A stretch of 64,000 nt of DNA from Crassostrea angulata (lineage: Eukaryota): NCBI RefSeq assembly GCF_025612915.1, contig NC_069115.1:8359492-8423491 (forward strand), in the 5' to 3' direction. Positions 8,301 through 56,600 of this stretch are shown here, piece by piece; position 1 is the stretch's first letter, and the number at the start of each line of letters is the position of its first letter. A model generated the notes under the pieces. The model saw only the letters and a list, made by a program, of their open reading frames with translations. It was not told the origin of the DNA and did not search any database. Both the position numbers and the translations under genes were made by a program.

Positions 8301-11300
8301 AAGGGTTTGATTTTATTATACATATATTGCATAGCTATGTTTTACATAAAATTTTACATTAATTTTTCCTTTGATCACAGAAATATGACAAGAAATCAAA
8401 CAGCACACAGTTTGGTGTTTTAGAGATTCACGCTCTCACCAGAGTTACTGCCTTTGACAACAAGGACCCCCCACCGAGATTCTGCGTTTGTTCTCACTCC
8501 GGAAGTGTAGAGGATTTACAGGTGAGAATTACTGTGGAATCATTTTAAATTCGTAGGGTCCAATTTTCGAGAATAGTTGGTTTTGTGCTAATTCATGGAG
8601 ATGAAATTTCATGGATGCGCCGGTTTTCATTTTCAGTATTAAGAAAGATAACTCTTTCTAAATTTGTTTTCTTCAAGGAAAATGTAATCACAACAATAGC
8701 TACTGTGAATATACTGATGCTTATACACAAACAAGTTCTTATTAATAACAAAGATGTATAATTTATTTTTTTTATTCAATATTTGTGAATTATTGAAGAT
8801 TAAAATAAAAGTGATTGAAAAGGTGATTGAAAAACTGCAGACCTTAATTTTCCATTAAATTTTTAATTATTCAATAGAATTTGATGTAATGAGACTTTTA
8901 CCGTAATCAAACTTACATTTATTTTTAAAATTTAAATTTGAATTATTTGTTCTCTTATACATTTACCTCTGGTTAAATAAAGTACATGTATTACAAATTC
9001 CCAGGATAAAGGAGACGGTGGAAGCAAGGAGTACCGCTTCGTGCAGACGTCAGAGGAGGCCCTGAGTGTGTACAGCGCCCTCTATAAACAGATGAAGGAT
9101 CCCCCGAGTAGCATGAATGTCTGTCACAAACCTCCCTGTCAGAATATTGGAACCAAACAGTTCCAGAAGGTACGAGGTTTGATTCAGCCTATTAGAAATA
9201 ATTCACCATTCATTCGTGGTTAACATTGTGGGCTAAACTATAATTAGTTGTTGAATGTTTTCTTGTTTTTTCCAAAGTACTATAATATATTGTTTTTAAT
9301 CACAAATAAAACAGCTGATACTGGAGTATGGGATGGAAGAGACAGAGTTGTCTGCCCCTGTGGCAGAGTTGATGCAGCACATTTGGCGGGAGGCAGGGGG
9401 AGAGATCGAGCAAGTCCTGAGTAGTCCACTGCAGTCCATCAAACTGGACCAGGTGAGCTTCAGGCACCCCATAGTGATCAGTTTGTCTGTTTCTATGTTT
9501 CTTCCATTTTTCTTTTATGTTTTATGTTCAAAGTACATTGATTTATAGTCTAGTTCTTGAAAATGAAATTCTGACCAGATTACTTTTGGCACATTCAGGT
9601 TGAGAAGGCTACAGCCATTTTGACCCACATGAAGGAGAGCCAATCAGACAACAGCAAACTCCAGGCTCTGTTTGATGAGTTCTACACGGCCCTCCCTCAC
9701 CGACCTCAATACAGGACAACCAGCTTCTCCATGTCATGGCTGGCCAGGAAACTTGACCTATGTCAGGTATGAGTCTATGTCACTCAGGTATGCCACTATG
9801 TCAAGCATTACACTATGTCACTTTGTCAGGCATATTGCTATCTTAGTTATGCTAGTAATGATACTATGTCAGTTATAACACTATGACAGTTATACCACAT
9901 TATGTCAGGTTTACCATTAACTCCGATATTCCACTATGATGAACATTTTATATTGTTTCCTTTCAGCTAATCAAGGACGTAGTGTCAGTAAGTGAGGCCA
10001 CGAATTGGTCGACGCGAGGCAATGCCGAGGCTCAGTACAAGGCCCTCAGATGTCAGATATCCCACGTATCAGGAGGCCTACCCAGACAGGTCCTAGATAT
10101 CCTCAACCTGAAACAGTGAGTTTAGTACAATATTGTTCAAGATATCATTAATATTAATATCAGACCTAGAAGTAGATGTCTTCGATCTTGCATGTACATG
10201 TACTTCAATCAATCAGTGATATTCTCAATCTGAAATGGTCTGATGTATGTTTGCTTCATATAACAGAGGGGAAGAAATGAGAATTCAGAATGTATATGCC
10301 ATACATCGGCCCTCAGAGAGTGAGAAATTCCGCTCAGACCTGAGTTCCAGGCCGCTGTTTCATGCCTCCAATGCAGAAAACTTTGTTGGAATTCTTTCCA
10401 GGTAATAGCTTGTTAAATGTTTTATCTTTCCTTTTAAGTAGACACTTGGTGCATATTAAAGAAAACAAAGATTAGTGTATTCTCTAGTGTTGTTATGGGA
10501 AATGTTATATTACAGAGGTCTCCTAATGCCAAAGGTCGTCGTTGATGACTACGGAGGAAAGAGAACTGATCCAGGAATGCTGGGACATGGGATCTATTTT
10601 GCAAGCTCTGCAAGGTGTGTGTTTCAGCAGTTGTCTGAACGAAAATATCATAGGGAAGATTTGAAAATTTTATTGAGTTCATGGCAATATTTTTGTGTTG
10701 AAGTATATTATCATGTTTGTTGTGAAATTCAAATCAAAAAGGGTTAAAAAGTCATGGAAATTTGGCTTTTCAACCATTCCAGAAAAAAGTGCTTGTTTTA
10801 AATTATTGTTTTTCTATGGCCTGCAATTAAATTATAGTTATAAATAATTTTTAAAAATCATATTCAAAATTTTTAGTTTTATCTTAGTGGTAATTTGTCA
10901 ACAACCCAGCGACTTTTAATCAGACAATGACAGCTATTTTAATTAGTATTAAACTTTATGTTTGTTCTTTTAAACTCTTGATCTCTAATGATTCATCAAG
11001 ATTGCCTGAAGTTTGAATTATCAAAATTCACCTGTATTTATGATCATTGCATTTTTAAAGCCTATTCCCTGACCCTTGTGTTCTCTTTCATAACTTTATA
11101 GTACGAGCATAAAATACTCGAAACCAAGTAAAACCAGAAACACACGGATGATGCTTGTCAGCCAGGTGGCACTAGGAACCACACTGGACGTGTACAAACA
11201 TCAGCGGGACCTAACAGAACCACCCAGTGGCTACCATAGTGTCCATGGGGTGGCTGCCACAGAGGGGGTGGAGTCTGAGTTCCAGGTCAGTAGGTTGTAC

Positions 11301-14300
11301 TGATGGTCAGGGCAATGTCATTAAGTTTACGACAGTCAGAAAGTTAAGTTAGTCGTGTAGCGTATTAGTGGTCCATCTGTCTTCTTGTCTGTCCTCAGTG
11401 ATCCCTTTCAGTTTCAGTGTTATATGTTTCCCTTCTGCGTAACGCAGTTTTGCACCAAATTTTCATAATTTTCTGTGTTTATTTCTGTTCATTTGTTTAT
11501 TTTCTACTGGAAATGATAAAATAACTTATGTACATGAGACAAACTGTGTCACTAATTACAGTAAAACTCGGTAATAGCGAAGTCCTAGGAACCAATGGAT
11601 TAACTTCGTTATATCAATGATTTGTAATATCCATATAATTAACAAATTCGTACTTAAGTCTAATAACTATTATAATACTAGTAGTGAATTCACTATGTAC
11701 ATTATTTTTTTATCAGACTACAATTTTTGCTAATTTAGGGAAATACATTTTTTTTATACCGTTAAAGATCAGACTGTGAATTGAAGAATTTATATGAAAA
11801 TATTTACATCTACAAAGTATTATTCCCTCTATTTCTTATGGAAACCTATAGTTAAATCATAGCTCTATAGAAACAGCCAGACTGAAATCTACACGCCCCG
11901 TTTATCGATTGGTTGAAATCTACAGCTGCTGAAACTGATAAGAAACTGACAGGACAGATATTGACACGCCCTGTTTATCGATTGGTCCAAATCTATAGCG
12001 ACCTAGAAAAAATCATGGACTGCACGAAATAATCATAACGATGTCAGACTCAAAGTCTCACAGGAGACGATTTGGCTGTTTCTTTTAGCTAACATACTTA
12101 GTACGTACATTGACAGTAATTTAGTGAATTTTACTAACTTTTCATAATCAATTTATCAATTAGCTAAAAGAAAGATGTTAATATAAACAATAAAATGCTT
12201 TCTTTGTTGATTCATTCGGGTTATGAAGGTAGCAATCAATGCAGAAAAAATTTACATAACCCGCTAATTTAAACGCAGGTTATGTATTTTTTCTGCAATG
12301 TCGCTACCTTCATATCCCGAATGAATCAACAAAGAAAGCATTTTATTGTTTAGATAAATTCATTCAAACTTTTATGATAAATGGTAGTGCAGACTTTTTA
12401 AACTGAGTGTGAAGAAATAAGTTATAAAAGTGTCAAACTTTGTTATTATTCAGCTTTTACTGGACTCAAAATCAGTTCGCTCTGTCCGTAAATTTCTTAT
12501 GCCCAAATTTATTAAAACCGTCAAATTTCGCAAAGATTTGTAAAGAATTTTATCGGGTACTTAATCTGTATTTGTACTTAAGGAGTTTACTGTACTTAAA
12601 TTGTCCAAAGATTAAGGTCACTGACAGGTACATTTAGTGGTTTAATTATACTTGAGCAGTACTGCTTTATGAGATACCCTTTCTTAAAAAAATTATTGCG
12701 TTAACTTTAATATATAGAATGTTAGAATTTTTATTTTTATAAACATATTAATCAAACTTAAGGTTTAAATTGCTGAGTGTGTTTTGTTTATGCTTGTAAT
12801 AGGATGATGAGTTTGTTGTGTACAACACAGACCAACAAATGCTGAGTTATCTCGTTGAGTTCACCATTGGCAGTGAGATTCCTGTGGAGATATCTGTTGA
12901 AAAAGAGGCTTTAGAAAGGGAGGAAACTTTGTCAGAGAGCAGTATTGGTGAATGAATATTTTAGTAACTTATTTAGAATGAAATATTAAACATTACAATT
13001 TTCAATCTCCATATAAGAATAAAAATTCTTACGGGTAACTTATTTGTAAGTATATTATTTGAAAAAAGACTTTAAGATATTTCTTTGCATTGGTATTTCT
13101 GATATATAAAACAAATAAACAGTCAGTAAATAAACTGAAAATGTATTTCTTTGTATTTAATTAATTCTGATGCGTGATTTGTTAAGAACAGTTACAATTA
13201 AAATTGAATTCCAAGATATTTTGCTGGTTGATTTTGCAGACATCAGCGACGTACATGATGTCACAGACCCATTGACAAAGGTCAAGGCCGGCTTGGTTTC
13301 CAATGACGACACCCCAGTTACTCTACTTGAAGCCCATATACGAGCTAAATTGATTGATCTGGCCGGGGAGGTAAACAATGAAATACATACACTTTACGCA
13401 GTACTTACAAAATAAAGCCATTTCAACAAGAGCTTGGACTTCGGCAGTATCTGTCAAACTTGGATTTGATGAAGGCAGAGTCTACTCAAGGTCAACTGTT
13501 CAGTCATTGGCTTAATGATATGAAAACATTGAAAGGAATAACCTTTGTCCAACTTAATCCAGGGATGAATATTTTAGTTAAAACAGCATCAATGTCACAC
13601 AATCTAGCAGACCTTATTTTAAAAAAATCCAATTTTGACAGTCTATTAAATATATATATATATATATATATTTATAAGCTGCCTAAGGTAATCCAAAGAA
13701 GGAATTCAACATTTGACAGCTTGTTATGATGATTAAATTATATAATTACATCCCACCAAAAGCCAAAGAAGCCACATTTTTAAGGAGGTTTAGTGATAAA
13801 CAGTTGACCAGTGTGGTCATCTTCATACAAATTGAATGAACTTGTCACCACTGATAATTGGCTCAGTAAATTTCTATATCATTTATAGACAAAAACTATC
13901 ATGTGAAATCTTTATTTAAAGGTAAGAAAATTCTAAAAATAGCCATAACCAACAATCCTCATTTAAGTGAAAACTCAGAAGATTTTATGTTGCAATACTA
14001 AAACTGTATGTAAAAAAAATGAACAGAATACCTTTACAATGTTTGATTGTAATAGTACATCAGTATTTTGTTCGGTTGTCAGGTGGTGGTGTTACAAGAG
14101 TACCACAACAATGATTGATTGTAATAGTGCATCAGTATTTGGTTTGGTTGTCAGGTGGTGGTGTTACAAGAGTACCACAACAACTATTGATTGTAATAGT
14201 ACATCAGTATTTGGTTCGGTTGTCAGGTGGTGGTGTTACAAGAGTACCACAACAATGATTGATTGTAATAGTACATCAGTATTTGGTTCGGTTGTCAGGT

Positions 14301-17300
14301 GGTGGTGTTACAAGAGTACCACAACAACTATTGATTGTAATAGTACATCAGTATTTGGTTTGGTTGTCAGGTGGTGGTGTTACAATAGTACCACAACAAT
14401 GATTGATTGTAATAGTACATCAGTATTTGGTTCGGTTGTCAGGTGGTGGTGTTACAAGAGTACCACAACAACGATTGATTGTAATAGTACATCAGTATTT
14501 CGTTTGGTTGTCAGGTGGTGGTGTTACAAGAGTACCACAACAACGATTGATTGTAATAGTACATCAGTATTTGGTTCGGTTGTCAGGTGGTGGTGTTACA
14601 AGAGTACCACAACAATGATTGATTGTAATAGTACATCAGTATTTGGTTCGGTTGTCAGGTGGTGGTGTTACAAGAGTACCACAACAACGATTGATTGTAA
14701 TAGTACATCAGTATTTCGTTTGGTTGTCAGGTGGTGGTGTTACAAGAGTACCACAACAACGATTGATTGTAATAGTACATCAGTATTTGGTTTGGTTGTC
14801 AGGTGGTGGTGTTACAAGAGTACCACAACAACGATTGATTGTAATAGTACATCAGTAATTGCTTCGGTTGTCAGGTGGTGGTGTTACAAGAGTACCACAA
14901 CAACTATTGATTGTAATAGTACATCAGTATTTGGTTTGGTTGTCAGGTGGTGGTGTTACAAGAGTACCACAACAACTATTGATTGTAATAGTACATCAGT
15001 ATTTGGTTCGGTTGTCAGGTGGTGGTGTTACAAGAGTACCACAACAACTATTGATTGTAATAGTACATCAGTATTTGGTTTGGTTGTCAGGTGGTGGTGT
15101 TACAAGAGTACCACAACAACTATTGATTGTAATAGTACATCAGTATTTGGTTCGGTTGTCAGGTGGTGGTGTTACAAGAGTACCACAACAACTATTGATT
15201 GTAATAGTACATCAGTATTTGGTTCGGTTGTCAGGTGGTGGTGTTACAAGAGTACCACAACAACTATTGATTGTAATAGTACATCAGTATTTGTTCGGTT
15301 GTCAGGTGGTGGTGTTACAAGAGTACCACAACAACAGTGACCAGGCCCTGGAGGCTAAGTACGTCTTCCCGCTGGATGACATGGCCGCCGTGTGCGGTTT
15401 TGAGGCGTTCATCAACGGGAAACACATTGTTGGGGAGGTGAAGGAGAAAGAGACAGCCCACCGGGAATACAAGCGGGCCGTCCAGGAGGGGCATGGGGCG
15501 TACCTCATGGACCAGGACGAGGAAACGCCGGTAAGATCAAGATGTTCACTTTAGACACAATGGTAATAATATGATCAAGGTCAATCAACATTGCAGTTTT
15601 ATTGAAAATAAAAGCCAATTTCAATACATTTGTACTATTTAAATATCATGGTATACTAAAATTCCCCTCTTGTGAATATATCACCAAAATTATTATGACC
15701 CACAAAGTTCACAGTACTATGACTCACAAAATTTAAATAAAAGTCACTACGAAAATTACTCATTGACAATTTCAATATTATTTATACAATGTATATTAAA
15801 ACATCTCATTTGTGAATCTATAACCAAAATTACTTTGAATCACAGAGTTAAGTATATTGGCAGTCATATCTTTGTTACTGTACAGGAGGTATTCACGGTC
15901 AGCGTGGGGAACCTCCCCCCGGGGGCTGTGGTGGTCATCAAGATCACCTATGTCACAGAGCTACAGGTGGACGGTGACCTCATCAACTTCCGTCTCCCAG
16001 GCAGCGTGGCGCCATGGAAACAAAAATATGTTGACGCACCGGAATTCAAAGACAAGGTCTCTGATTCAACATTGATTGTTTGAATATTTATTGAAAGCTT
16101 CTTAAAGATTAGCTACAGAACCATAATTCTATGTATAAAGGTTGGATAAAACTGTGCCCTAGAATCCATCATCACAAATTTTTCTTAAGAGCTACTGTTT
16201 TTTCGGTTTTTCAGGCAATGAATTTAATAAGAAAATGTGTCTTTTTATGTAAATGTAGGACTGGGACACAGTCCAGGTGGAAGATACCTGCTGTAGTGTA
16301 CAGGTGTATGTAGACATGCCCTTTGTTATATGTCTGTATTTTTGTCTACTCTATGTTATAGGACTGGGATACAGTACAGGTGGGAAACACCTGCTGCAGT
16401 GTACAGGTGTATGTAGACATGCCCTTTGACATCCGGAGTCTGGAGTGTCCCACGCATAAAGTACTCTCCAAGGTAATCTATAGATACACTGTACAGTCAC
16501 TGCTCTGATATTACCTGACTGATCAAAAACAATTAATGAACTGGTATTTTCTAAGATTAAACTTTGAACATTTTGATGACATGAGCATAATGGTTAAAAT
16601 TAATAAGAAACACATTGGTGCATTTCAACCTTGTTGGGGTTTTAGAGCAATATTTTTCATGTAAAATAATGTTTGCAGAGAACGGCCACTAAGGCTGTGG
16701 TGGAAATTCCAGACGAGTCAGACCAGACATTGGAGGATGGATTCCAGCTTCTGATTGGTTTAGCAGAAATCCACGTTCCGCGGATGTGGGTCGAGTCGGA
16801 TGAAGGAGAGTCGCAGGTAGTTACAAGGAATTCTCATGAAATCAATTACTTTTATTTTTCAGTCATATACTGACAGTAGATGGAAATTCATAACATATGA
16901 TTTAGATTAAGTAATTTACAAGAGAACCCAGGTATATGTTAGCAAGCAAATTGCAATGAGTATAACTTATTGTTACTTCATTACTTTGTCATAGAGTGAG
17001 TAACGTTTAATTTTATTACTTTACATCAAGTTGAAATTTAAAGTACAGCATGTATGACCACAGAGCAATTTAAAAAAAAATCGAAATTCACTGAAAGTAG
17101 ATGAACATTACATTAGGGTTATCTATATTAGGCATGCATGTTGACCTTTTACCCTGAGTTTGAGGCTGATGAGGAGTCAGAGGTTGAGGTCATCCTGATG
17201 ATTGACAGCTCCAACTCCATGAAGGACTCCTCCCACCGTGATGCCAAAAAGGCTGCTCTCCTTGTGTTACATCTCATGGATCCAACATGGAGGTTCAATG

Positions 17301-26300: not shown

Positions 26301-29300
26301 AAAAAAAAAATTATTAACAAATTTGAACATTTTTTTTATTTGAATTTGAAGATGGAAGAAGTGGGAGATTCCTATGAAGAATTTTTTGACGGAGGAGGAG
26401 GTGGAGGAGGAACAGAGAAAATTGAAAGTACTGAGGTATACATGTATATATAAATTATCATAACAGAAACTTGTTCCAAGGAGTCAATTCAGGTTGTGCT
26501 GCCAGGCCTAGATCATTAGATCAAAGGTCATTAGATGTTTCAATCAGGCCTGGCAACCACAATAGAATTATTTCATGATGATAAAATAATTATTATAATT
26601 TATGATGATGACTTTGGCTGACTACACAAGAGTCTCAATTGTCATCACGAATATTTCTTGCCTTAAACCAGTCTGGATGTAACAGGGCTTGGTCGTGATT
26701 AATATATAACATGATGATAAATATTAAATGATGATGAAATCATTACATAACCCATCTATTATTAAGGTAATAACATAACCCACCAATTATTAACTTTTTT
26801 AAAAGGTAATTTATTACAGAGCCCATATAAGGCCTCCAGATTACTTTAATTTTGATTGTTACTGAGTCTAAAATTTAAAGATTTAAATGTTGCAGGCAGG
26901 AACTAAACTTTTATTACAAGATAAATAAAGTTTTCTTATTAAAATTTTGAATAATCATAAATACCTGGTAATCATTACAGGGTTGTTCAATGTTGTCTGA
27001 TGATGATGAAGAAGACGACCTTCAACCCATAGTGATGGACATGGGCTCTCTCTTCATGAAGGCGGGGTTTGCTGGCGACGACACCCCTCGGGCCGAGTTT
27101 GAGACCACGGTAGGGCGACCCAGGCACCAGGGGGTCATGGTGGGCATGGGACAGAAGGATGCCTATGTTGGAAAGGAGGCCACAGGTAAGATAAATGTAA
27201 TCAAACAGGTTTCAGGTAGACTTGTGGAATCAAAGTCAATGGTAAGGCAATGAAATCATTGGTCACAGGTAAGACAATTTAATAAAAAAAAAAAAACACA
27301 GGTAAGATACTGTAAACAAAGGTCCAGATAAGACAATTTTTAAAACGTCACAGGTAAGATAAGTAAATCATAGGACACAGGTAAGACATGGTAATTTAAG
27401 GTTACATTACTTGTAAGACAAAGTGTTTGCTCTGGTAGGTTACATAAGACAGTGTGATTGTAGGTTACATGTAAGACAGTGTTTTAATTTATAGATTACA
27501 AACAAGACAATGTAATGGTAGGTTACAAAATACAGTGTGATCGTAAGTTACAGGTGATACATTGCAATCATAGTCACAGGTAAATACAGTTATGTAAATA
27601 ATTAAATATAGGATACAGGTAAGACAGAGTGGTGGTAAGTTTCATCTGAGACAGAGAGATAATTATTATTGTAGGTTAAAAAATAACCATTGGTTACAGA
27701 TAAGGTAATGTAAACAGAAGTCACAGGTCCCACTTAAAAAAGGACCAACAGGTTAGACTCACTCTCAGCTATAGGTAAAACAGTATGTCAGTCGTCATAA
27801 GTCACCAGATCACTCTCAGCTAGGTAAAACAGTATGTCAGTCGTCATAAGTCACCAGATCACTCTCAGCTAGGTAAAACAGTATGTCAGTCGTCATAAGT
27901 CACCAGATCACTCTCAGCTAGGTAAAACCATATGTCAGTCATCATAATTAGTCACCTGATATCTCAGATAGGTAAAACCATATGTCAGTCGTCATATAAG
28001 TCACCAGATCACTCTCAGCAAGGTAAAACAATATGGCAGTCGTCATAAGTCACCAGATCACTCTCAGCAAGGTAAAACAATATGTCAGTCATCATAATTG
28101 GTCACCAGATCACTCTCAGCTAGGTAAAACAATATGTCAGTCGTCATATAAGTCACCAGATCACTAGGTAAAACAATATGTCAGCCGTCATAAGTCACCA
28201 GATCACTCTCAGCTAGGTAAAACAATATGTCAGTCGTCATAAGTCACCAGATCACTCTCAGCTAGGTAAAACCATATGTCAGTCATCATAATTAGTCACC
28301 AGATCACTCTCAGCTAGGTAAAACCATATGTCAGCTGTCATAAGTCACCAGATCACTCTCAGCTAGGTAAAACCATATGTCAGCAGTCATAAGTCACCAG
28401 ATCACTCTCAGCTAGGTAAAACCATATGTCAGTCGTCATAAGTCACCAGATCACTCTCAGATAGGTAAAACAATATGGCAGTCGTCATAAGTCACCAGAT
28501 ATCTCAGATAGGTAAAACCATATGTCAGATGTCATATAAGTCACCAGATATCTCAGATAGGTAAAACAATATGGCAGTTGTCATAAGTCACCAGATCACT
28601 CTCAGCTAGGTAAAACAATATGGCAGTCGTCATAATTAGTCACCAGATATCTCAGCTAGGTAAACCAATATGTCAGTCGTCATAAGTCACCAGATCACTC
28701 TCAGCTAGGTAAAACCATATGTCAGTCGTCATAAGTCACCAGATCACTCTCAGCTAGGTAAAACAATATGTCAGTCGTCATAAGTCACCAGATATCTCAG
28801 ATAGGTAAAACAATATGGCAGTCGTCATAAGTCACCAGATCACTCTCAGCTAGGTAAAACAATATGGCAGTCGTCATAAGTCACCAGATCACTCTCAGCT
28901 TGGTAAAACAATATGTCAGTTGTCATAAGTCACCAGATCACTCTCAGCTAGGTAAAACAATATGGCAGTCGTCATAAGTCACCAGATGAGTAAAATAAGA
29001 GTTACTATTGAGGTTTTTCTTTTTACAAGTAGAATTTTTCAAAGTTTCTATTATACACATTTCATTTATTTCATTATCTTTGACTTTGGTAATAACTCTA
29101 TGCTACAGTAATTCAGTTACCATCATACAAAGATATTGTGAATTCAAGGTACAAAATGTTTGTGGAAATGGAAACTTAGAAAAGCTTACAATCATGACAA
29201 CTAATTCTAGTGTGTTCTTTTTACCAGGTTCCAAACCTATAGCTGGGAAAGTTTTAAAAGGAAAGTCACCAGGTATATTCACAAATGTACTACCAGTTAG

Positions 29301-31265: not shown

Positions 31266-34200
31266 CTGTGCAATCGTGTCCGGTCCATATCTTTCTTATG
31301 GAGAAACATTGGAAGTTCTTACTTCACACAAAGATTGCTTATGACCTAAGGGTGTGTCATGACCTTGACCCAAGGTCATTCGGGCAAGGTCAAGGTCACT
31401 GGCAGAAAAAGTGTAAAATTCGTGTCCGGTCCATATCTTTCTTATGGGGAAACATTGGAAGTTCTTACTTCACACAAAGATTGCTTATGACCTAAGGGTG
31501 TGTCATGACCTTGACCCAAGGTCATTCGTGCAAGGTCAAGCTCACTGGCAGAAAAAGTGCAAAATTCGTGTCCGGTCCATATCTTTCTTATGGAGAAACA
31601 TTGGAAGTTCTTACTTCACACAAAGATTGCTTATGACCTAAGGGTGTGTCATGACCTTGACCCAAGGTCATTTGGGCAAGGTCAAGGTCACTGGCAGAAA
31701 AAGTGCAAAATTCGTGTCCGGTCCATATCTTTCTTATGGGGAAACATTGGAAGTTCTTACTTCACACAAAGATTGCTTATGACCTAAGGCTGTGTCATGA
31801 CCTTGACCCAAGGTCATTTGGGCAAGGTCAAGCTCACTGGCAGAAAAAGTGCAAAATTCGTGTCCGGTCCATATCTTTCTTATGGGGAAACATTGGAAGT
31901 TCTTACTTCACACAAAGATTGCTTATGATTAAAGGGTGTGTTATGACCTTGACCCAAGGTCAATTGAGAAAGTTCAAGGTCATTGTTTCAAAAAAGCTAA
32001 ATTCTGTCTGTGTCATGTCTTGTATGAATGGAAATATAAGAAGCTAAAAATTAACAGTTTTCAAAAATAAAGCAGTTGTTATTTATAGAAAATGGACAGT
32101 GAAATAGATTCATCCAATATTTTCTATAATAGCAAAAATACACGCGTTATGATTTTTTTCTTAGCGGGGGGTATCAATTGTGAGCTTGCTCACAGTACCT
32201 CTAGTTTATATAAATATGTTTACTAAATTAAACAGATTTATCAAAATATTCATATCGTATCATGTACCTGGTGACATGTCGTATCATGTACCAGGTGACA
32301 TGTCGTATCATGTACTGGGTACTATGTCGTATCATGTACCTGGTGACATGTCGTATCATGTACCTGGTGACATGTCGTATCATGTACCTGGTGACATGTC
32401 GTATCATGTACCTGGTGACATGTCGTATCATGTACCTGGTATCATGTACCTGGTGACATGTCGTATCATGTACCTGGTGACATGTCGTATCATGTACCTG
32501 GTGACATGTCGTATCATGTACTGGGTACTATGTCGTATCATGTACCGGGTAACAAGTCGTATTATGTACCATATATTGTATTATGTACCGGATAACAGGT
32601 CAGTAGGAGATTTTAAATGTCTAAAGGAAACATAAAAAAAAATTACTGTATACAGGGAAATATTCCCCCCTGTTTTATTTTCGCCCCTTTCGCCCTCGTT
32701 GTCATTGGGCGAATTAATGACTGGGCAAGTTTCAATATCTCAAATTATCTGTTTTTAAACACAACTGTGTGCAGATGGGGCAAAACTTTAAGCAAGTGTA
32801 AGAAAGGCTAGTAATGAATTACACAATAAATTCAAATGTTAGTTATAAATGCATTGATTTGTTACTGTAAACAAAGACGACTGACCTTGGGCTACTAGGT
32901 ATTGTATACAGGGATATTTTCACCCGGTGTTATGTTTCCCTTTCAATGTCTTTCAACTTTTCAATATCAGGTCATGCACTCTATAATTATAATGATTTTT
33001 TTTTTGTTAAAGTTATAGGTTTAATAGTCCTTTATGACAGATTTCAGGCAGTTAGGTTGTCGTCGTTACAAATATTATGATTTAATTTTCTACTCCTTGT
33101 TTACATGACAAAGAATTGTGAGCCCTGTATCTTGCTTGTAACTCTACAACTGACTCTCAAATTTCATTTGATCATTAGATATACATTTCTAAAGCATTGT
33201 AAATAATAAAAACAGAAAATTGAATTTGACCAAAATCATGAGCGTGGTCCATTAAAATAAAATGATCTTTTACATTAATCAACTTCAGGAAGGATATCTA
33301 GTATAATTGGACAACCACTGTCTGCAAAAAATTTAAGAGTGGATACTTTTAAGCCACCAGAGGTACAACTCCAATCAGCTCCTTCTTCAATGTCTGGATT
33401 GGCATTACCCGGTGTGATGAGAGGGGGCGTTTCTTCCAGAAAGGTACATGGAAATGTGTCTAAAGGAGCAGTTCCAGCAGAGAAATCCAAAGGAGTTGGT
33501 TATGGGGCATCTGAAAGCTCTTTATCTGATCTAACAAAAACAGGATTTGGAAGGCTGTCACCACAGCCAACACAAGAAATATCTGAACAATCATTATTTG
33601 GATCAGGATTTGAAGTACCTCCACCGGAACAATCAAGAGATTTTCAATTTGGTCCATCATCACAAACAGGTCAGCCATCAGCACCTGCTGACCCAGTGTT
33701 TGGATCATCAACAGCAGGATTCGGAGCACGACCAATGATGGCATCACAGGCTATGGGAGGATCATTATTTGGATCAGGATTTGGAGCACCTCCATCGGAA
33801 CAATCAAGAGGTTTTCGATTCGGTCCATCACAAAGAGGTCAGCCATCAGCACCGGCTGGCCCAGTGTTTGGATCATCAACAGCAGGATTCGGAGCACGAC
33901 CAATGATGGCATCACAGGCTATGGGAGGATCGTTATTTGGATCAGGATTTGGAGCACCTCCATCGGAACAATCAAAAGGATTTGGATTTGGCTCCTCATT
34001 ACCCATGGTACAGTCATCAGCACCTCCTGTCCCAATGTTTGGATCATCAGCAGGATTTGGAGTACCACAACAGGCTGCTATGGGTGGATCGTTATTTGGA
34101 TCAGGATATGGAGCACCTCCATTGGAACAATTAAATGGATTCGGATTTGGTTCATCAATGGAACAGCCATCGCCACCTGGTGCTTCATCATTTGGGTCCT

Positions 34201-36890
34201 CACCAGCAGGATTTGGAGTACAGCAACAGACTTTTGGAGGATCATTATTTGGATCAGGAGGCAGAGCAATGCCACAAATATATTCACTACAGTCTGATAT
34301 GTCTTCAAGTGGTTTTGGGTTTGGAGTACCTAGAAATAGATCACAACCAGCTTCTCCTCCTCCTCCACCAGCCGCTCCTCCACTACCTCCTCCACCACCA
34401 GTAGGACAGTCCAGAGGGATTGGCTTTGAGGTATCACCAAGAAACGAAATGATTCCATGTGGACCTGAAATTATATCTAGAATGCAAGGAGCAACAGAAG
34501 GAGGGCTGCCACCAGCCGCTCCTCCTCCACCTCCACCACTGCATCCACAGTCATCACCACCAGCGCCTTCTCCACCTGCACCTTTGCATTCTTCACTTCT
34601 GCGTACACAATTTATGCCTCCACCGCCACAGTCTTCTCCACCACATCCACCAAAACCACGTCAATTATTGCAACAACAAATACAACGTGGAAAAATACTA
34701 AAAAAAGCAAGCCCGATCATACGCCCTGCTTCTTTTTGTGCAAATATAGCACTATCTGAGCCAATACTAGAAAGCCAACAGGAAATTACCCCATTATTAG
34801 ATCTTGAAGTTGATGAACTTTTACCTGATTTATACCAGAGACGTTTGGCAGCACCTCCATCTCCCCCGCCAATTTCAAGAAAAAAGTCGGAATCACCTAC
34901 ACCATTAAGTCAACAGTCTGAGAGTGATTCAGTGAGGGCTGTAAAACCTCGATTAAAAAAAAAAAAGCTGAAAAAAGAATTCACAATGGCACGTGATGCA
35001 GAAATTTCAGATGCAATTTCATATACAGAGGAAGAGCAAGATGCAAAGAAAAAACCATCTGGAGGTAAGTACAGACAAACATTAATTTGTTTTTAAATCA
35101 AACAAAATTTGTGTTCTGCAACTTACTATTATTTGGTAACTTTTGCTTTTATTTTTATATTCATTTGACAATGAGAGCAAATGAGGCAATAATAGAAAAT
35201 GTTGCAATAGATCCAAACATCCAAACAACACAGTATCCGTGTATAACATAACCATATAAAGCTTAACTGTTTTAAAAACTTAGTTTAAGGTATACATTTA
35301 CTCAGAATGAAAAAACATTTCACTGATGATAATGAAAAACCATCTATTCAGTGTTAAAGACATATCATGGTAGTGCTTCTTTTCACTTTCCAAAAAGTAG
35401 GTCAATGACCTACTTTTTGAGATAATGGCCATTGAATATTTTTTGAAAAATCAAGGAAAATCCCATAAAATTTTACACTATATCTGAAATTGTCTTAATT
35501 GTGAAAAAAAAAAATACAAATTGCGATCTGAATTTGAGAACTCAAACCCTGAGTAAACAACGTCCTTAATAATATTTCACAACACATCAAAATCATCATG
35601 TTGTAAATTCCTGTGCAGCATTATAGAAATAAGTTCTGGTATAGGTGTAGGTCACCTTAGCTGCTTTGGTAACAATTTAGTGAAAGTCAGTTAAATTTCT
35701 GAATTTTATATGCCAATCTAGGATGAAGTGCATGTTTAAAACACTTTGGTAAATTCAGACTTATTATATAAAATTTGTGTTGTAGAGTTCATCTTAAAAC
35801 AGTACTTAGCATCCCCTGATCGGAAAGCTAGAGGTCGTTCAATGGTGAGGCGGTCATTTACAGGAAAGCCGAAACAATCATCTAGTGAGGTGAGAGACTG
35901 TTTGCTTATTGATTGGAACATATGCATGTGTAGTAGGGTAAAGAGCATGGAAAGCTACTGCAGATATAGCACCATTACACAGTCAGGGTACTCAAAGTTA
36001 AAATAATGAGTTTTATAGAAATTATGACATACAGTCAGGCTTGGGGCGAATTACATTGTAAAGTAATGCATTGCATTACCATTACTTTATGAATTTGGGC
36101 ATTAAATTACCATTACCATTACTTGATTTTCTTGAAGTAATGCATTACATTACCATTACATGACTAAAGTAATGCATTACCATTACCATTACTTTGTTTT
36201 AAAAAATTAAAGCTAACTAAGAGTTTTTGTAAATGTTTCAAATATAAAACACTCTTTTAACATATCTACAGCTTCATGCTCAGTATCAGGTTCAAATTCA
36301 ATGACTATACAAGAGTCGATCATTCTTTATTTGCTCAATGTATAATCATCTTGTGGCATTATGAACAACTTATTACGTAAGTAAAATGAATAGATATTTA
36401 TATATAGACATTTGGCATGATACAATGTCAGATACAAAATAGAGACACAGAATTACATGCATAACAAAAAACAATTTATTGAATAATGTTGCGGTTATTA
36501 AAAGCTAAATAGAGATATTTCCCCAGATTACACAAATCTTTATAATTTTGGACACTTAATTGTATTAATTCATAAACAGATGGTTTTTCCCAGTAATATT
36601 CTTTCTATATTTTAATCGTATATCTTTTTACTGAGGACACTTTAAGACAAAAGATTGCTATTGCACTTTTTGATCGAAGTTTCAAAGGGTTCATCTTTTA
36701 ACTGCATCTTATTAGTTTGAAAATCTTCCCAGCTATACTAAATAAATGTTTTACAGGAGCAATCGAAGCTTGGACTGAAAAGTACTGTTTGACGATCTTT
36801 ATCTTAGAATATATTAATTGTGCAATAATAGAAAAAATACAAGAATCTTGTATTTTCTATCAGTCCAAACTAATGTACAGGATACTTAAT

Positions 36891-36949
<59 letters not shown>

Positions 36950-39900
36950 AGTAATTATTTTCAAATGGGTTATAATATTGGAAGTGATATTGATTTTCAT
37001 CGTGGATGGACAGTGCATTCACTTTGCTTTTAAAGGTGTATGTCTGTCTCCTATTCTATTGGGACATAGCGAAGGGAAGGGGATTGGGGTGTTTTGCACT
37101 TCTTATAACAATAGATTGTTTTGATACTTAGATTATCCTGGGGGCATAGTGTGTTGTTGACACATTTTTAATTGAAGTGCAAACTAATCGGAGTAAATTG
37201 TTTAAATGATTAAAAACTCTTAATAACAACACTCTTAAAAATGATATGAAATTGTGCTGTCATATTTAGTAATATTAACAATTCAAAAATGAATTTTTAA
37301 AAATCTTTTTTTAATAATACAATTAAATCATATTTATCCCAATAATTATCTCTTTCTCCTTTAAAATCAAATTTAATCAAATTCAATTTCAACTATTCAT
37401 TTATTCATCACATTTTTTAAAGTGAACATGCATAAATAAGCATAGTAATGCAAAGTAATGCCATGTAATGCCAGCATTACACTAGATTTTGGAAAGTAAT
37501 GAATTACATTACCATTACTTGTAATGCTAATTTAGTGGCATTACACATTACTAGCATTACTTTGAAATCATGTAATGCATTGCAATGCATTACCATTACA
37601 TTTAGCATTACCCCAAGCCTGCATACAGTATAACGAGTAAGTTCTGTCGTTGTTTATTTTCTGCGGTATTTTGTTCAGCTGCATGAATCCCTCTACTGAA
37701 ATTCTTGATCCCTGGGACAGGGGTTGAAGCTCTATGGTGGGACCAATATGGCCATATACTATTAGTTAAAATGTATTAAATCTTAGAAAATCTTCTTCTC
37801 TACTCCCACACATGTGGGCAAAAAACTGAATACATGGTTATGATGTCCACAAACTTATAATGTATTAAATCTTCTTCTTCACTCCCACATGTATTTTGGA
37901 AAAACCAAATTTTGAAATTAATGGTTCCTGGGTCAGTGGTTCGGCGGTAATGAAAATGTATTGATTAAATAAGTATTAAGTAAATGTACTATCGAACTTG
38001 AGAAAGATAAAGTCAAATATTGTAAAAAGTTAAGTTGTTAATTGCATGCGTTATTATGTTCACAATGTCCTGACGTTAAATTGTGAAATTGACTGCCCAA
38101 GCCATAGGAATTAAGTTGAGGTTTTTATTTTGGGGGGGTGGGGTAATTAGGGTAATTATGTGGGCTTTTCCTTTGCATTTTATACTTGTAATAAGCTGTA
38201 TGCATAAATGGAACTGTGATTATTATAAAAGATTGACTATTGAAGGCCTGCAGACTTTAGACTTCAAAATTAAGCTTAGAATTAAGCTGAAAATGCAAAC
38301 ACGGTCTGGTACTCAGGTGACCATAAGGCTTGTGGGCCTCTTGTTTTTATAACTCAACAATGAAATTGTTGAAAATAATACTAGGCATATGAATATTTTC
38401 TATTTTAAGAATGAAATGACAACACTGCTTTTACTGGATGTCACCCCTTTACCTCTTGGTGTGGAGGATGCAGATGGCAATTTTATTGAAATTGTTCCCC
38501 GAAACACCACCATACCTTGCAGAAAAAGCCAGGTCAGTGAGACTGTTAGTTCAGGGCTTTGCCTGAAACTGTGGATTCTTACTTGAATTTTATATTATAA
38601 TATGTGTAAAATTGCAAGATGCATAATTTATGTACACTTTGCAGATTTCAAAACTTTTTACTTAATATTGACAGATCTGTACTATTAATAATCAAACTTA
38701 ATAATAGAATATATGAGTTAGCAATTTTATATTCTCGCAATTTGATGCAAAATGGTCAATTCGCAGAATTACATGTAAATATTATAATAAATAAATCTTT
38801 AGTAATCAGTGTTATGGTTGCAGTTACTAGGGATGAGCCCTAGTCATTATTTGATCCAGCTGCGGGATGCATGTATCACTTTAGATCAAAAATATGTCAT
38901 GTATTAAATTTTATATATATCAATATAATAATGGCCAGTTATTTTGATAGGCTTCAGGTATGCTAAACTGATTGTACAGTAACTGTAATGTAATGGTTTA
39001 AAAATATAAAGCACACTCAGATTAAAGTTGTGGTAAATAATGAGAATACCATAATGATTCTTTAAATGAACTAAACAATCTTTTTTTATCAAGTGATCAT
39101 GTTTTGCAATTTTAGTGGTATAGGTATGTTCAAAAATTTTACTCAATAATTACCGTTCTGGAATTCACCTTTGCCTTTTTTTTGAATGCCAGTTAAAGAG
39201 ACATGGTGACTCAAACTTACATAATTCTTTTTTTGTAAAGATTTTTTATAAAATCAAAAAATTGGGAAGAAAGATAATCAAAGCCAAGTTATGTGCATTC
39301 ATCTGCACCAAAATGCAGACAAAAAATGTAATTTGAATGTCGGAAAAACGAAAATTACATGATCCAGAATGGTTTATAGTTTACGTCTAGCGTCATGTGA
39401 CTTTCTTCAACATCCATCTGTGATATTGGTTGCCAAGATATACATGTACCTTTGTTTGAATACAGCCGCCCTGTTCCTTTCTCGGGCGATCTTTTTCTTT
39501 ATGAAAAAACCTCGGTCTACCGACTTTTCGTTTTTCGTGGCTAGACTCCATGATTGTTTAATATGTTGTATATGCGCAATTGTAGAAGGAGGCACGAACA
39601 ATATTTACTGTTGGGCCAACAAGTAATTATATTTTTATCTGTAACAAATGAATTTTTACTTTATAAAACTTGTAATTTTGTGAAACTTCTTATGTTCAAG
39701 AACTGAACAAAATTTAGAAAAGCCACAGTGACCTAAAAATGTTGTTTTATCCAATTCACTTGTTTTTGCATCACCGTGTCTCTTTAATATTTTAATCATA
39801 TGATTATTTGACTGTAATATGCCATTAGATAAAATCTCAAAAACACATATCATACATGTACAATATGTGCAATACATGTACTACATATACATGTATCCTG

Positions 39901-45384: not shown

Positions 45385-46412
45385 CCTTCTTGTGAGGCCA
45401 AAGAATTGTCCTGGGGCCAAAGTCTTAACAATTATAAAGAATCATCTGGCTGATAAGTTTATGAGAAGAAGATTTTTAAAGATTTACCCTATATATTCCT
45501 TTGATAAACTTTGACCCCCCATTGTGGCCCCACCCTACCCCTGGGGATCATGATTTTCACAACTTTGAATCTACACAAGTTTCAGCTTTCCTGGCTGATT
45601 AGTTTCTGAGAAGAAGATTTTTAAAGATTTACTCTATACATATGTTAAATTTCGACCCCCCCCCCATTGTGGCCCCACCCTACCCTCAGGGGTCATGATT
45701 TTCACAACTTTGAATTAACACTACCAGGGGATGTTTCCACACAAGTTTCAGCTTTCCTAGGTGATTAGTTTCTGAGAAGAAGATTTTTAAAGATTTACCC
45801 TATATATTCCTATGCAAAACTTCGACCCCCCCATTGTGGCCCCACCCTACCCCCAGGGGTAATGAATATTCCTATTTAAAACTTTGACCCCCCATTGTGG
45901 CCCCACCCTACCCCCGGGGGTCATGATTTTCACAACTTTAAATCTACACTACCTGATGATGCCTTCACACAAGTTTCAGCTTTCCTGGCTGATTAGTTTC
46001 TGAGAAAAAGATTTTTAAAGATTTACCCTATATATTCCTATGCAAAACTTCGACCCCCCATTGTGGCCCCACCCTACCCCCAGGGGTAATAATTTTCACA
46101 ACTTTGAATGTACACTACCTGATGATGCTTCTACACAAGTTTCAGCTTTAATGGCTGATTAGTTTCTGAGAAGAAGATTTTTAAAGAATTACTCTATATA
46201 TTTAAATGTTAAACTTCGACCCCCCATTGTGGCCCCACCCTACCCCCTACACTACCTGAGGATGCTTCCACACAAGTTTCAGCTTTCCTGGTCTTATGGT
46301 TCATGAGAAGAAGATTTTTGAAAATTTCTCAAAATTTTCATAAATTCCTAATAATCTCCATTTGCAAAAGGGTGTGGTCCTTAATTTTCACAACTTTGAA
46401 TCCCCTTAGGCT

Positions 46413-52979: not shown

Positions 52980-53420
52980 ACAACAAGTCTAAATGGTGGT
53001 CTCTTTGAAGAGATACGGCGAAGCTCTGACGAGGATCTTTAAAGTCTGTCTGATCGAGAGAGGGGGACCGCAGCTATGAAGGAGGTGCGATGTGGAGTGT
53101 TTCCTCGCGATACGAGGCTTTAAGTCGCGAACAAAAGATTATTGATATATTACAAGATAACGGTCAGAGGAACTGCTGTTTAGGACTGCATGAACAATAG
53201 TCGACAATTACAAGATGTCAAATCAAACCAGACCTACACTTGACGTACAAATCACGCGGGATGTCGTCTGCGAACGCTTGTTGATTTCCGTCGGTGTTTG
53301 GTTCATTAAAATAAGAAAACATGCTACTTTCCTTGCATAAATATGGATAGAATTTGCCCCGAGAACTGTTTTGAAAATATGGACTTTAAAATTTGCTGCA
53401 AATAGCAGCGTGATCCATCG
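52980..53420 (+). promoter_or_regulatory. CpG-enriched candidate promoter/5'UTR region upstream of the HUNK-like start
   Basis: Local cluster of CG dinucleotides (tcgcgatacgagg, gtcgcgaac, cacgcgggatgtcgtctgcgaacgcttg) in otherwise CpG-poor AT-rich DNA, immediately 5' of ATG 53423. Confidence 0.3.
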
Positions 53421-53422
53421 GT

Positions 53423-53635
53423 ATGGAACAGGGAAATTTAGACAAAAATGGAGACGTTTCTGAAGAAACACAACCAGCGGATGAAGATGTTGCTAAGTCG
53501 ACTGGCGAGCATCACTCAACAGAGGAAGCTTCCGAGAAGAAAAAGAAGGTCGGGAGTTACATTCTCGGGAAAACTTTGGGCGAGGGATCGTTTGCTAAAG
53601 TTCGTCAAGGCGTCCATCTTTTAGCACATGAAAAG
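53423..53635 (+). CDS. HUNK: HUNK-like exon 1 (N-terminal extension, Gly-loop and VAIK lysine region)
   Basis: [71 protein letters not shown]; donor GTAAGA at 53636. Confidence 0.8.
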
Positions 53636-56600
53636 GTAAGATTAAGCTCGAACAAAGCCTCAAAAGAATAGAAAGCAGTGGTTGGGGGGGGGGGGGGCGG
53701 GGTAGTCACTCAGCTAGCTGTGTTATAACACTGTTGAAAATGTTTGGTTTTTTTTTTTTTTTTATAAAAATCATAGTTGACTATTTAACAAACTAGACAA
53801 AACTTAGGTAGACCTAATGTACTCTTTTGAATCTGTCATCTTGCGGTTTAAATTCAAAAGTGTCAAAATTAAACTCCTTATTCCACGCCATGTCAATTAC
53901 GCATTGAAGTTGTTCGTAAAACCAATATTTCGTTGCTCATTTGTGTGTGTTTAATTTTTATCCATCGGAGTTTATCGGTCTTAATGTCGAATCCATGTAG
54001 TCAACGACAGTTATGAATCAGGTTTAAATGATTAAAATATTTAGGTTCCTGTGGCACGATATTAAATGTCTTTCTTCAAAATAATACACATTCAGAATTG
54101 AGCACTTTTACATACAAGCAAAACCCAACATTATATTTTACCTTTTAGATGAAGGCTTTAATTTTCATACAAAACTGCAGTGTATAAAGATAACATATTA
54201 TATAATAGATATTTACTCTTATGTCAATGTCCATTGATGCTGTTTTCAGAACACATTTAAATAACATGAATAGATAAGCCATTCGTCGTAATTAAAGTCA
54301 TTACAAACACGACATGAATTCACCATTTTTATAAACGCCGATATTAATTGTACAGAAAAAATATCTGGCTCGCAGTGAAAGAATGCCAATTGAATTTTTC
54401 TGAAACCAATTTTCTGTCTATGAAATGATATATACCCTCTGTATACTGAACTGATATACATGTATACCCGATGTATACTCGCGAGCAATGTTGCTTTTTA
54501 AATTGTATACATAATGCCGCGATTCATAAACGAGTTTCATTTATCTATATATCAAATAGAACAGCTGTTTAAAAAAAACTTTGGTTAATGCTTTAATTTT
54601 TCTGAAAAGGTGAGATGCTATCAAAACTTTGATGAATTTCGGAGATCATGCTTTAAGGTGAAGGTCCCGGGTAATAGCCGGTGTATATTATAGCAACATC
54701 AATTTAAAGTCCTAGATCTTATTTTTAAAATTACATTTATCACTTGACTGAGGTCGTAATAAGTGGCCTAAGATTCTTCATAGATTTTAGCGACACGGGT
54801 ACTTATCCGAAGAGCTCTTGGTATTTGATCTAACAGCGGTCCGCCGATCTTGTAGTTCAAAATGCGTAATTCTACTGTTATAACTGATAAAATGGCGGGA
54901 TTGCCTTATCAACCCTCTCCCCATTTCAGGGATTACGAACTTGTCCACTTCTAAATTGTCAAACTTTGATGAAGAGCGCCAAATCAATAAATTTGGGATT
55001 TAAAAAAGAAGTTAAAAACAACAGACTATCAATATGGTGGGCATTTATTTAGAAATTTTTCGACTTGTTAAATGTCATCTTCCTTCGATTTCAAAATTTT
55101 TTAAACAAAGACTACATTGAAGTCTGAGTAGGTAGAAGTGTATTTGTCCTGAACCCTGACCCTCTGATTTGATAGTTACCAAAATCAATGAAAGCCGCAA
55201 AAAATAAAGGGGGTGTGTGTAAAAATATAGGTAAAGAGCATTGAAATTCTGTTAACACATCAATGCATGGCATCTGAAAAGAAAAAAAAAAGAATGAGGA
55301 CTTTAAATTAAATTTGATTTGATTCTCAATCACGAAGACATTTAACGAAATAAAGCTGATGTTTATCGAATTTGTGTTCATTCAAATGCTCGGTCCATGT
55401 AAAGTGTTTTCAATGCTTACACCCGGCGCTTAATACCTCACTAATTTGATATTGAATGTATTTAATAACGTAACAATCCAAACCGGTTGAGACTGACGGA
55501 GAAACATTGACACCGTGTCAGTCTGTAAGGTATCAGTCTGAAGGTCAAGGTCATCTCCACAGGTCACTCACAGAGGTCACTCACCCCTGTCAAAATCGTT
55601 CTAGTTTGTGGCGCAGTCCCGATGTCTTGTTTGCCAATGTCTACCATGCCATATACACATCGCTTTTGTTTCACTGCAAATCATTTAGTTTGTATTATAC
55701 ACTTTACTTACATGTATACAAATTGATCGACCAGCAGCTTATTTTAGGTTTGTTATGGGTGGGGGTTTGGGGAGGAAAGAGGGTGGAAACTGACGTAAAA
55801 ATGTCTCTTTGAAAATTAATAATTCAATTCTTACTGTGAGTGAGTCACCATTAATTCATAATACAAGTTAATTAGTTATTGGTCAGTTCCAGTAGCTCTG
55901 CTAAACTGGTGTTTACTTTTTTATATAATTATATAGATTTAAGGTATTTCTGACAGAGAACTAAAACGAGTGAGCAGAACGAATCGATAGATGAAACTTT
56001 ATTTTGAGAATGTTAACTGTTTTTTGTCAGTGTTACAGTGTAACTTAATCTTTATTTTGACAGTGTTAAATTTATTTGACAATAATAACTTATTATTTTG
56101 ACAATTTTAACTTTATTTGACAATGATAAATAATTCATTTGACAATGTTAACTTTGTTTTCACCGTGCCAATCTTGACTTAAGATAGTACCCATCTACTT
56201 TTTCAGATATATTTGTGTAACATGAATGTTTTAGACAGTAACTGTTCATGTCATTACCATATTATATAAGGGTCAAGTAAAGTATACATGTATGAATGAA
56301 TGAATGAATAATGAATGAACAAAAAAACCCTGTATAATCCAGTAGCAGACAGGCAACTCGAACCCGACTGATTAAGAATGACAACTCCTTCTGTATGTGC
56401 TCGATATGATCACGTAAATGTAAAGAAAAATCAAAGTACTGAAGTACTGACGGGAGTTGATTTTATCGATTATCATTTATTTTAAAACCAACTTATCTTG
56501 CATGGCAATTAGTTTCTAGTCTGTATTTGAATTACGCACTTTTTTATTATATGAATTTTAGACTTTTCCAATAAGAATTTCGAGAAACCCCATATGAATC

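Follow-up and report, generated by a model that had tools for sequence, protein, structure and literature searches.

A mirage-like minisatellite at the intron 13/exon 14 boundary of a PARP4-like gene in the oyster Crassostrea angulata

Tandem, minisatellite-like duplications of intron/exon boundaries have been described in amphioxus, where they were named 'mirages' and occur at Adh3, TnC, a retinol dehydrogenase gene, the globin genes BflGb6 and BflGb9, and PGBD5 (PMC3087553, PMC3902484). The Adh3 units are given as 10–72 bp (Canestro et al. 2002 NAR 30:2871, as cited in PMC3087553). In BflGb6 the unit consists of the 3′ end of an intron together with exon 2's 5′ portion, is present in 3 and 6 copies on two haplotypes, and evolves in concert in the interior of the array, with divergent units at the edges (PMC3087553). 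The amphioxus repeats contain AG/GT signals and differ in copy number between haplotypes, and reverse transcription PCR shows that the genes are spliced regularly (PMC3087553, PMC3902484). Two other systems are close to this one. The 37-bp variable number tandem repeat (VNTR) of human F7 intron 7 (IVS7) has a first unit that spans the exon/intron boundary and identical, functional pseudo-sites that stay silent (Borensztajn et al. 2006, PMC1557585); the copy in use is the one that abuts the body of the exon, and 5′-to-3′ scanning was proposed (PMC1557585). The Rogers model derives new introns from tandem duplication of segments containing AGGT (Hellsten et al. 2011, PMC3265369; potato RdRp, PMC4974935). 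Here we describe a 72-bp minisatellite that repeats the boundary between intron 13 and exon 14 of a PARP4-like gene in 64,000 nt of the C. angulata genome (assembly GCF_025612915.1, contig NC_069115.1, positions 8,359,492 to 8,423,491, forward strand). This whole stretch is referred to as the window, and all coordinates are positions within it.

To place the array, it is necessary to establish which gene it sits in and which acceptor is the real one. A tblastn exon map made with homologues shows + strand open frames for, in order, BRCT, PARP regulatory and catalytic, VIT and VWA segments. The VIT domain thus follows the PARP catalytic domain and has the VWA domain downstream of it, which is the PARP4 gene order and argues for a PARP4-like (vault PARP) host gene. 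When exons 13–15 are joined, the best match is a fragment of the C. gigas poly [ADP-ribose] polymerase 4-like protein XP_011429775.2, at 97% identity over the whole query, and Pfam VIT matches exons 14 and 15 with E=4.5e-35. The exon numbers 13, 14, 15 and 16 are labels carried over from a sequence-only reading of the locus, with no full-length protein model behind them; our exon 13 is that reading's number minus one.

Exon 13 (13240–13370, + strand), placed by tblastn of the C. gigas fragment and other homologues together with splice context and translation, ends at CTGGCCGGGGAG|gtaaac, with GAG at the donor and in phase 0. Intron 13 (13371–15305, +, 1935 nt) is bounded by its splice signals and by the C. 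gigas fragment, which reads straight through the exon 13/exon 14 junction (LIDLAGE| at the end of exon 13). The VIT-domain exon 14 (15306–15530, +, 225 nt), supported by tblastn, the C. gigas protein and Pfam, opens at cag|GTG GTG GTG and closes at the donor CCG|gtaaga. The VIT domain continues in exon 15 (15886–16056, +; tblastn, splice context and translation). Orthologous exons in three other bivalve contigs are 86–88% identical and open at the same codon, with the acceptors ttttcag|GTGGTTGTG, ccccag|GTGGTCGTG and ttatag|GTTGTAGTG. Because the C. gigas protein spans the junction and the three bivalve contigs share the codon, the acceptor at 15306 is genuine and evolutionarily old. The sequence-only reading had taken this terminal copy of the repeat as the true acceptor, a choice that the phase-0 donor of exon 13, the C. 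gigas protein, the bivalve contigs and the VIT profile all bear out. The protein itself is ordinary; the array leaves its coding sequence unaltered, and nothing here alters knowledge of PARP4 itself. Farther along the gene, the exon at 16676–16816 is only ~81% identical to the C. gigas fragment, which has AVVQMKDNQMLEDGF there, compared with 97% in the VIT exons; this difference points to a congener or a strongly diverged allele rather than to the C. gigas reference haplotype.

At this acceptor and upstream of it, Tandem Repeats Finder (TRF) reports one array at 14036–15335 (+ strand), with a period of 72, 18.1 copies, 96% matches, 0% indels and a score of 2397; its extent is also supported by a table of acceptor units, by pattern counts against shuffled sequence and by a self-blast, which carries the left edge to 14025. 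Each unit consists of 42 nt of intron tail (attgattgtaatagtacatcagtatttggttcggttgtcag, ending in ggttgtcag) followed by the first 30 nt of the VIT exon (GTGGTGGTGTTACAAGAGTACCACAACAAC). In the intron part, a TTGAT motif resembling a branch point precedes a T/G-rich tract that leads to cag. GTCAG|GTGGTGGTG is present 18 times: its first exon base falls at 14083, advances in steps of 72 nt to 15235, and falls for the last time at 15306. Sixteen of the unit spacings are therefore 72 nt and the final one is 71 nt, owing to the loss of one G in tatttGgttcgg, where this unit has tatttgttcgg in place of tatttggttcgg. A 24-nt core from the intron-derived part is found 18 times in the window, always within the array (0.00 expected from shuffles). 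The 18th copy adjoins the remainder of the exon (15306–15530), to which it contributes the first 30 nt, and it alone reads on into ...SDQALEAKY. All of the array's other acceptors lie upstream of this one, and the 17 extra units make up 1223 nt, or ~63%, of intron 13. These data agree with the sequence-only reading on the composition of the unit, which TRF and the spacing of the acceptor string both confirm, and on its estimate of about 17 upstream acceptors, of which we count exactly 17 in addition to the genuine 18th. That reading had extended the repeat over 14035–15530; its right boundary is the end of the exon, the array itself stopping at 15335.

The oyster array has every structural feature of a mirage minisatellite, as far as these can be read from the genome. 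As in amphioxus, it is a head-to-tail minisatellite whose unit spans a boundary and includes the splice signal, its authentic junction belongs to the copy that runs on into the exon, the remaining copies being intronic, and its interior units are homogenised while those at the edges diverge. The match to BflGb6 is closer still, in that both units combine the 3′ end of an intron with the 5′ part of an exon. The differences are that the host is a mollusc rather than a cephalochordate, and that there are 18 copies where BflGb6 has 3–6. Normal splicing and length polymorphism have been demonstrated for the amphioxus loci, whereas the oyster array is known here from sequence alone, in which internal duplications of two- and three-unit blocks are indirect signs of unequal exchange. 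We found no report of a mirage outside the cephalochordates in the literature searched, which is a limit of that literature and not proof of absence. The kind of element is thus already known, and what is new is its occurrence in a mollusc, a new phylum.

Like the F7 VNTR, the array places an authentic splice site beside identical copies of the same boundary. The geometry is reversed: F7 repeats a donor and uses the most upstream copy, while the oyster gene repeats an acceptor and must use the most downstream one, so the scanning model proposed for F7 cannot by itself explain the choice of the last acceptor. The 72-bp unit contains no exon/donor boundary of the F7 type; reiterations on the donor side are present elsewhere in the window, at 9760–9910 and 27181–27386. 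The locus also resembles AGGT duplication, in that a tandem duplication containing AG|GT yields extra sequence that splicing can remove precisely, preserving the coding sequence. In contrast to intron gain by that route, no new intron has arisen; the position is an old one, common to the three bivalve orthologs, and an existing intron has been lengthened.

The edges of the array carry information about its origin. With cctttACAATGtttgattgtaatag in the 5′ flank and CACAACAAC|AGTGAC in the exon, the same ACAA borders the duplicated 72-bp segment on both sides; the left edge of the array, at cctttACAATGtttgattg, has this ACAA microhomology in common with the CACAACAAC of the exon. In copies 1, 3, 5 and 8 the base after ACAA is T, matching the intron flank; in the others it is C, matching the exon. 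A tandem duplication mediated by microhomology appears to have left this pattern as its footprint.

Later turnover is visible in how variants are distributed among the units. Two variants are exclusive to copies 7 and 10, each of which follows a consensus unit (6 and 9), and this indicates duplication of a three-unit block; copies 13–16 alternate between T and C at one site, which indicates duplication of a two-unit block; and T occupies unit position 1 in copies 13–17. Each interior unit departs from the consensus at 0–3 positions. At the tatttGG site both edge units, the first and the last, differ from the interior consensus, copy 1 being divergent at its left edge as well, as expected if the edges of an array escape homogenisation. 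Such patterns of variant sharing are classic minisatellite turnover and argue for a real array.

The comparison of the same intron in related species, which the sequence-only reading had proposed, separates the acceptor from the array. The acceptor codon is common to all three of the other bivalve contigs, and none of them has a tandem array in the orthologous intron. Taken with the 96% identity of the units, this marks the array as young and restricted to a lineage. It also follows from the three introns lacking the array that it is dispensable for PARP4 function. Within the window, the unit is found nowhere else and is therefore not a dispersed element.

We next consider what the upstream acceptors would do if they were used. 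The 17 decoy modules (14083–15264, + strand; first base after AG at 14083+72k, k=0..16, from the acceptor string and the unit table) are no weaker than the other acceptors of the gene. In the phase set by exon 13, all 17 run into an in-frame stop no more than 11 codons past the acceptor, confirming for the whole set the prediction that extra units bring in a stop. The stop contexts are AAC TAT TGA, AAT GAT TGA and AAC GAT TGA, giving a peptide of 10 residues followed by D or Y; in copy 5 a G>T change creates a TAG, and the frame closes after the five codons VVVLQ. Transcripts with a premature stop and many exon junctions downstream of it are targets of nonsense-mediated decay, and transcripts from the upstream acceptors should meet that fate. 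Every unit also has a donor-like ATT|GTAATAGT 8 nt past its exon-derived part, which to the eye resembles the real donors gtaata and gtaatc of this gene. Each unit would thus formally amount to a 38-nt pseudo-exon with an in-frame TGA.

We favour the view that the array is a mirage-type minisatellite derived from the intron 13/exon 14 boundary, and that it is a neutral, tolerated intronic expansion rather than a regulatory device; we put the probability of this at roughly 75%. In this model, replication slippage or microhomology-mediated repair between two ACAA microhomologies would have produced a tandem duplicate of a 72-bp segment reaching from −42 of the acceptor to +30 in the exon. Unequal exchange of blocks of one, two and three units would then have raised the copy number to 18. 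With all extra copies upstream of the last acceptor, the whole expansion amounts to added intron. When the array is removed along with the rest of intron 13, the conserved VIT sequence is restored, and splicing of the exon 13 donor to the last acceptor would give an unchanged mRNA for the VIT domain. The last acceptor is probably selected by exon definition, because it is the only copy with a full 225-nt exon, a purine-rich, enhancer-like sequence (GGAGGTGAAGGAGAAAGAGACAG) and the good donor CCG|gtaaga. The decoys offer only 30 nt of exon sequence with an in-frame TGA, or at best the 38-nt pseudo-exon, which would be too short for efficient definition. Stray transcripts from upstream acceptors would, with their premature stops, be cleared by nonsense-mediated decay. 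Most likely, then, the array is selectively neutral or slightly deleterious and polymorphic in length. Of the roles that the sequence-only reading had put forward, its 'tolerated junction-derived minisatellite' is the one best supported, ahead of its decoy or splicing-kinetics idea.

A different kind of candidate for site choice was an RNA hairpin that pairs GUUGU...GUGGUG with CACCAC...ACAAC and leaves the AG within an internal loop. At z-scores of only −0.6 to −1.6 it is not significant, and the hairpin is the same in the decoys and the genuine copy and so cannot explain the choice of site; we rejected it. Searches of the literature on the choice among duplicated 3′ splice sites yielded nothing usable.

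Several observations weigh against our interpretation. On a naive view, first-come-first-served co-transcriptional splicing would favour the upstream copies, such that silence of the decoys is not guaranteed. The use of the last acceptor rests on a related RefSeq model that is 97% identical and whose allele may lack the array. Our searches found no second assembly against which to confirm the copy number, and metagenome scans for the array's exon-to-intron junction and for the plain acceptor junction gave 0 hits each. Finally, none of the 18 copies varies between −9 and +15 around the AG, a possible hint of constraint. With 8 of the 72 unit positions variable, the chance that none falls in this 24-nt block, chosen post hoc, is ~0.04. 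Mismatches number 4 in 480 in the exon-derived part and 19 in 672 in the intron-derived part. We do not accept the invariant core as evidence of selection, given a post hoc value of ~0.04 from eight variable sites; the variants behind the exon/intron difference in mismatches are, in addition, shared by descent.

The window contains three further junction-derived repeats. The nearest lies in the same gene, at the acceptor of exon 16 (16256–16428, + strand), as identified by a repeat search, tblastn of the C. gigas fragment, the sequence and self-blast. It consists of two copies (16256–16325 and 16359–16428) with a period of 103, 70 aligned nucleotides and 91% identity, and covers tag|GACTGGGA…CCCTTTG, which is the acceptor and the first ~67 nt of the exon. 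Exon 16 itself (16362–16472) starts in the downstream copy, which matches the C. gigas fragment at 97% compared with 56% for the upstream copy. This duplication is older than the 72-bp array, and because 103 is not divisible by 3, use of its upstream copy would shift the frame.

The second example is on the donor side of the same gene. The PARP-regulatory exon ends at a donor at 9769 (CTATGTCAG|gtatga), and degenerate reiterations of its exon end and donor, with which the following intron starts, occupy 9760–9910. After the exon, whose end reads AAACTTGACCTATGTCAG|gtatga, these include ctcaggtatgcc, tgtcaggcatat, tgtcagttata, gacagttata and tgtcaggttta, and TRF detects weak arrays at 9763–9803 and 9863–9916. 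These repeats look like an old donor-side mirage. The third example is in the actin-family gene next door, which has an exon at 26972–27187 (Pfam Actin, E=4.7e-11). The end of this exon and its donor, CACAG|GTAAGA, are present in five exact copies within 27181–27386 (205 nt), a density that 0 of 100 shuffles reach. With up to one mismatch allowed, there are eight in the window where 0.94 are expected, again reached by 0 of 100 shuffles. Past these copies are degenerate repeats resembling aggtaagaca (to 27700) and then an array of 25 units of 49 bp (27759–28987) with a consensus containing CTAGGTAAAAC, possibly all parts of one donor-derived repeat family inside a single intron. Overall, the window is rich in minisatellites, with 49 TRF rows. 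Given this richness and the three further junction repeats, the mutational process is common here, and this genome appears to generate boundary-derived repeats recurrently.

The strongest competitor to a neutral expansion is that the array regulates splicing, with the decoys diverting a copy-number-dependent share of transcripts to nonsense-mediated decay, as a rheostat of PARP4 dosage, or slowing the removal of the intron by titrating U2AF/U2. Each unit is indeed a full acceptor module, with its TTGAT motif, T-rich tract and cag|G at a strength on par with the gene's own acceptors; a premature stop follows every decoy; and the −9 to +15 core is invariant. However, three bivalve orthologs have the same exon structure and no array, the array's 96% unit identity marks it as young and its turnover is that of an ordinary minisatellite, and the invariance of the core is statistically unconvincing. 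Amphioxus mirages and the F7 pseudo-sites are reported to be silent, and the presence of like repeats at other introns and in a second gene of the window points to mutational bias rather than to a function specific to this locus. We therefore regard regulation as distinctly unlikely.

A still less probable alternative is that the array heals itself by recursive splicing. Use of an upstream acceptor would regenerate a 5′ splice site, GAG|GTGGTG, which would be re-spliced to a later copy until the wild-type mRNA was made, in the manner of recursive splicing at ratchet points or of the Rogers AGGT model. Every unit has AGGT at its junction (cAG|GTggtg), and tandem duplication of AGGT segments is a documented source of spliceable intervals (PMC3265369, PMC4974935). 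Nevertheless, GTGGTG has neither the +4A nor the +5G of metazoan donors and is unlike the donors of this gene (gtaaac, gtaaga, gtaatc, gtatga, gtaata, gtcagt and gtagtt), and recursion is superfluous for the normal product. We consider it very doubtful.

It is about as improbable that the array, or its length, was made or inflated by the assembler. Tandem arrays are prone to such errors, the BflGb6 mirage was mis-assembled in the draft amphioxus genome (PMC3087553), and our searches turned up no second assembly or read set. But assembler loops yield identical copies, whereas the oyster units are non-identical, with eight variable sites shared among subsets of units, divergent edges and one unit of 71 nt. 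Other arrays and a diverged two-copy junction duplication (91% identity) are also found close by.

As the sequence-only reading had said, the array creates a 457-aa open reading frame (ORF; 13967–15340), which exists because 72 is divisible by three, and we find it to be an artefact without a real homologue. A word-based protein search with both open frames of the array recovered homologues of exon 14 only, and an exact-identity look-up of both array ORFs returned no record. An exhaustive HMMER search with the 457-aa ORF gave only leucine-rich-repeat proteins, with E-values down to 1.8e-31 at 13–38% identity. These matches have periods of 22–24 residues, and we judge the significance to be a periodicity artefact in which a faint likeness per unit is multiplied over 18 repeats. 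In Pfam, no stretch of the ORF passes on its own, and a Helitron_like_N line lies below the cut-off. The ORF, its HMMER values and the Helitron_like_N line are the grounds for viewing the array as a coding repeat, or as part of a satellite carried by a transposon and lying next to the exon by chance. That view can be dismissed, because the ORF follows from the unit length, the matches are driven by periodicity, no Pfam line has an independently passing stretch, and the unit is the conserved exon start joined to its own intron tail, local unique sequence found nowhere else in the window. Such an ORF can nonetheless mislead gene callers, and it illustrates how repeat periodicity inflates significance.

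Taken as a tolerated boundary minisatellite, the array has implications beyond this gene. It sets 18 near-identical 3′ splice sites in series, of which only the last gives a functional mRNA, and is thus a natural experiment on acceptor choice that bears on models of exon definition, scanning and first-come-first-served splicing; in this respect it mirrors, on the acceptor side, the donor model of human F7. The finding of several cases within 64 kb suggests that highly polymorphic, minisatellite-rich genomes of marine invertebrates may often generate boundary duplications, and frequent duplication of this kind bears on models of intron and exon birth. The array is probably also a good length-polymorphic marker. 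A bolder proposal, to which we assign little weight, is that boundary mirages are general in oyster genomes, as in amphioxus (there are four examples in two genes of the window), that this decoy array, polymorphic in length, could modulate PARP4 output by way of unproductive splicing and nonsense-mediated decay, and that in lophotrochozoans such arrays could supply the material from which new exons, new introns or shifted acceptors arise.

The remainder of the window holds other features of note. An open frame of 605 aa (33279–35093), probably one long exon, contains tandem coding repeats of 159–168 bp (TRF, 33590–34259) rich in G, S, F and P, and its product may be a low-complexity or FG-like protein. 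A dispersed repeat containing CCCCATTGTGGCCCCACCCTACCCCCAGGGG is found in both orientations at 930–1688, 45446–46247 and 37611–37775, where it forms local tandem arrays with periods of 145–337 bp; it is probably an element resembling a short interspersed element (SINE) or a miniature inverted-repeat transposable element (MITE) that seeds satellites. Farther downstream on the + strand is a protein-kinase gene (53414–62289) whose exons include DFGLSN, unrelated to the array.

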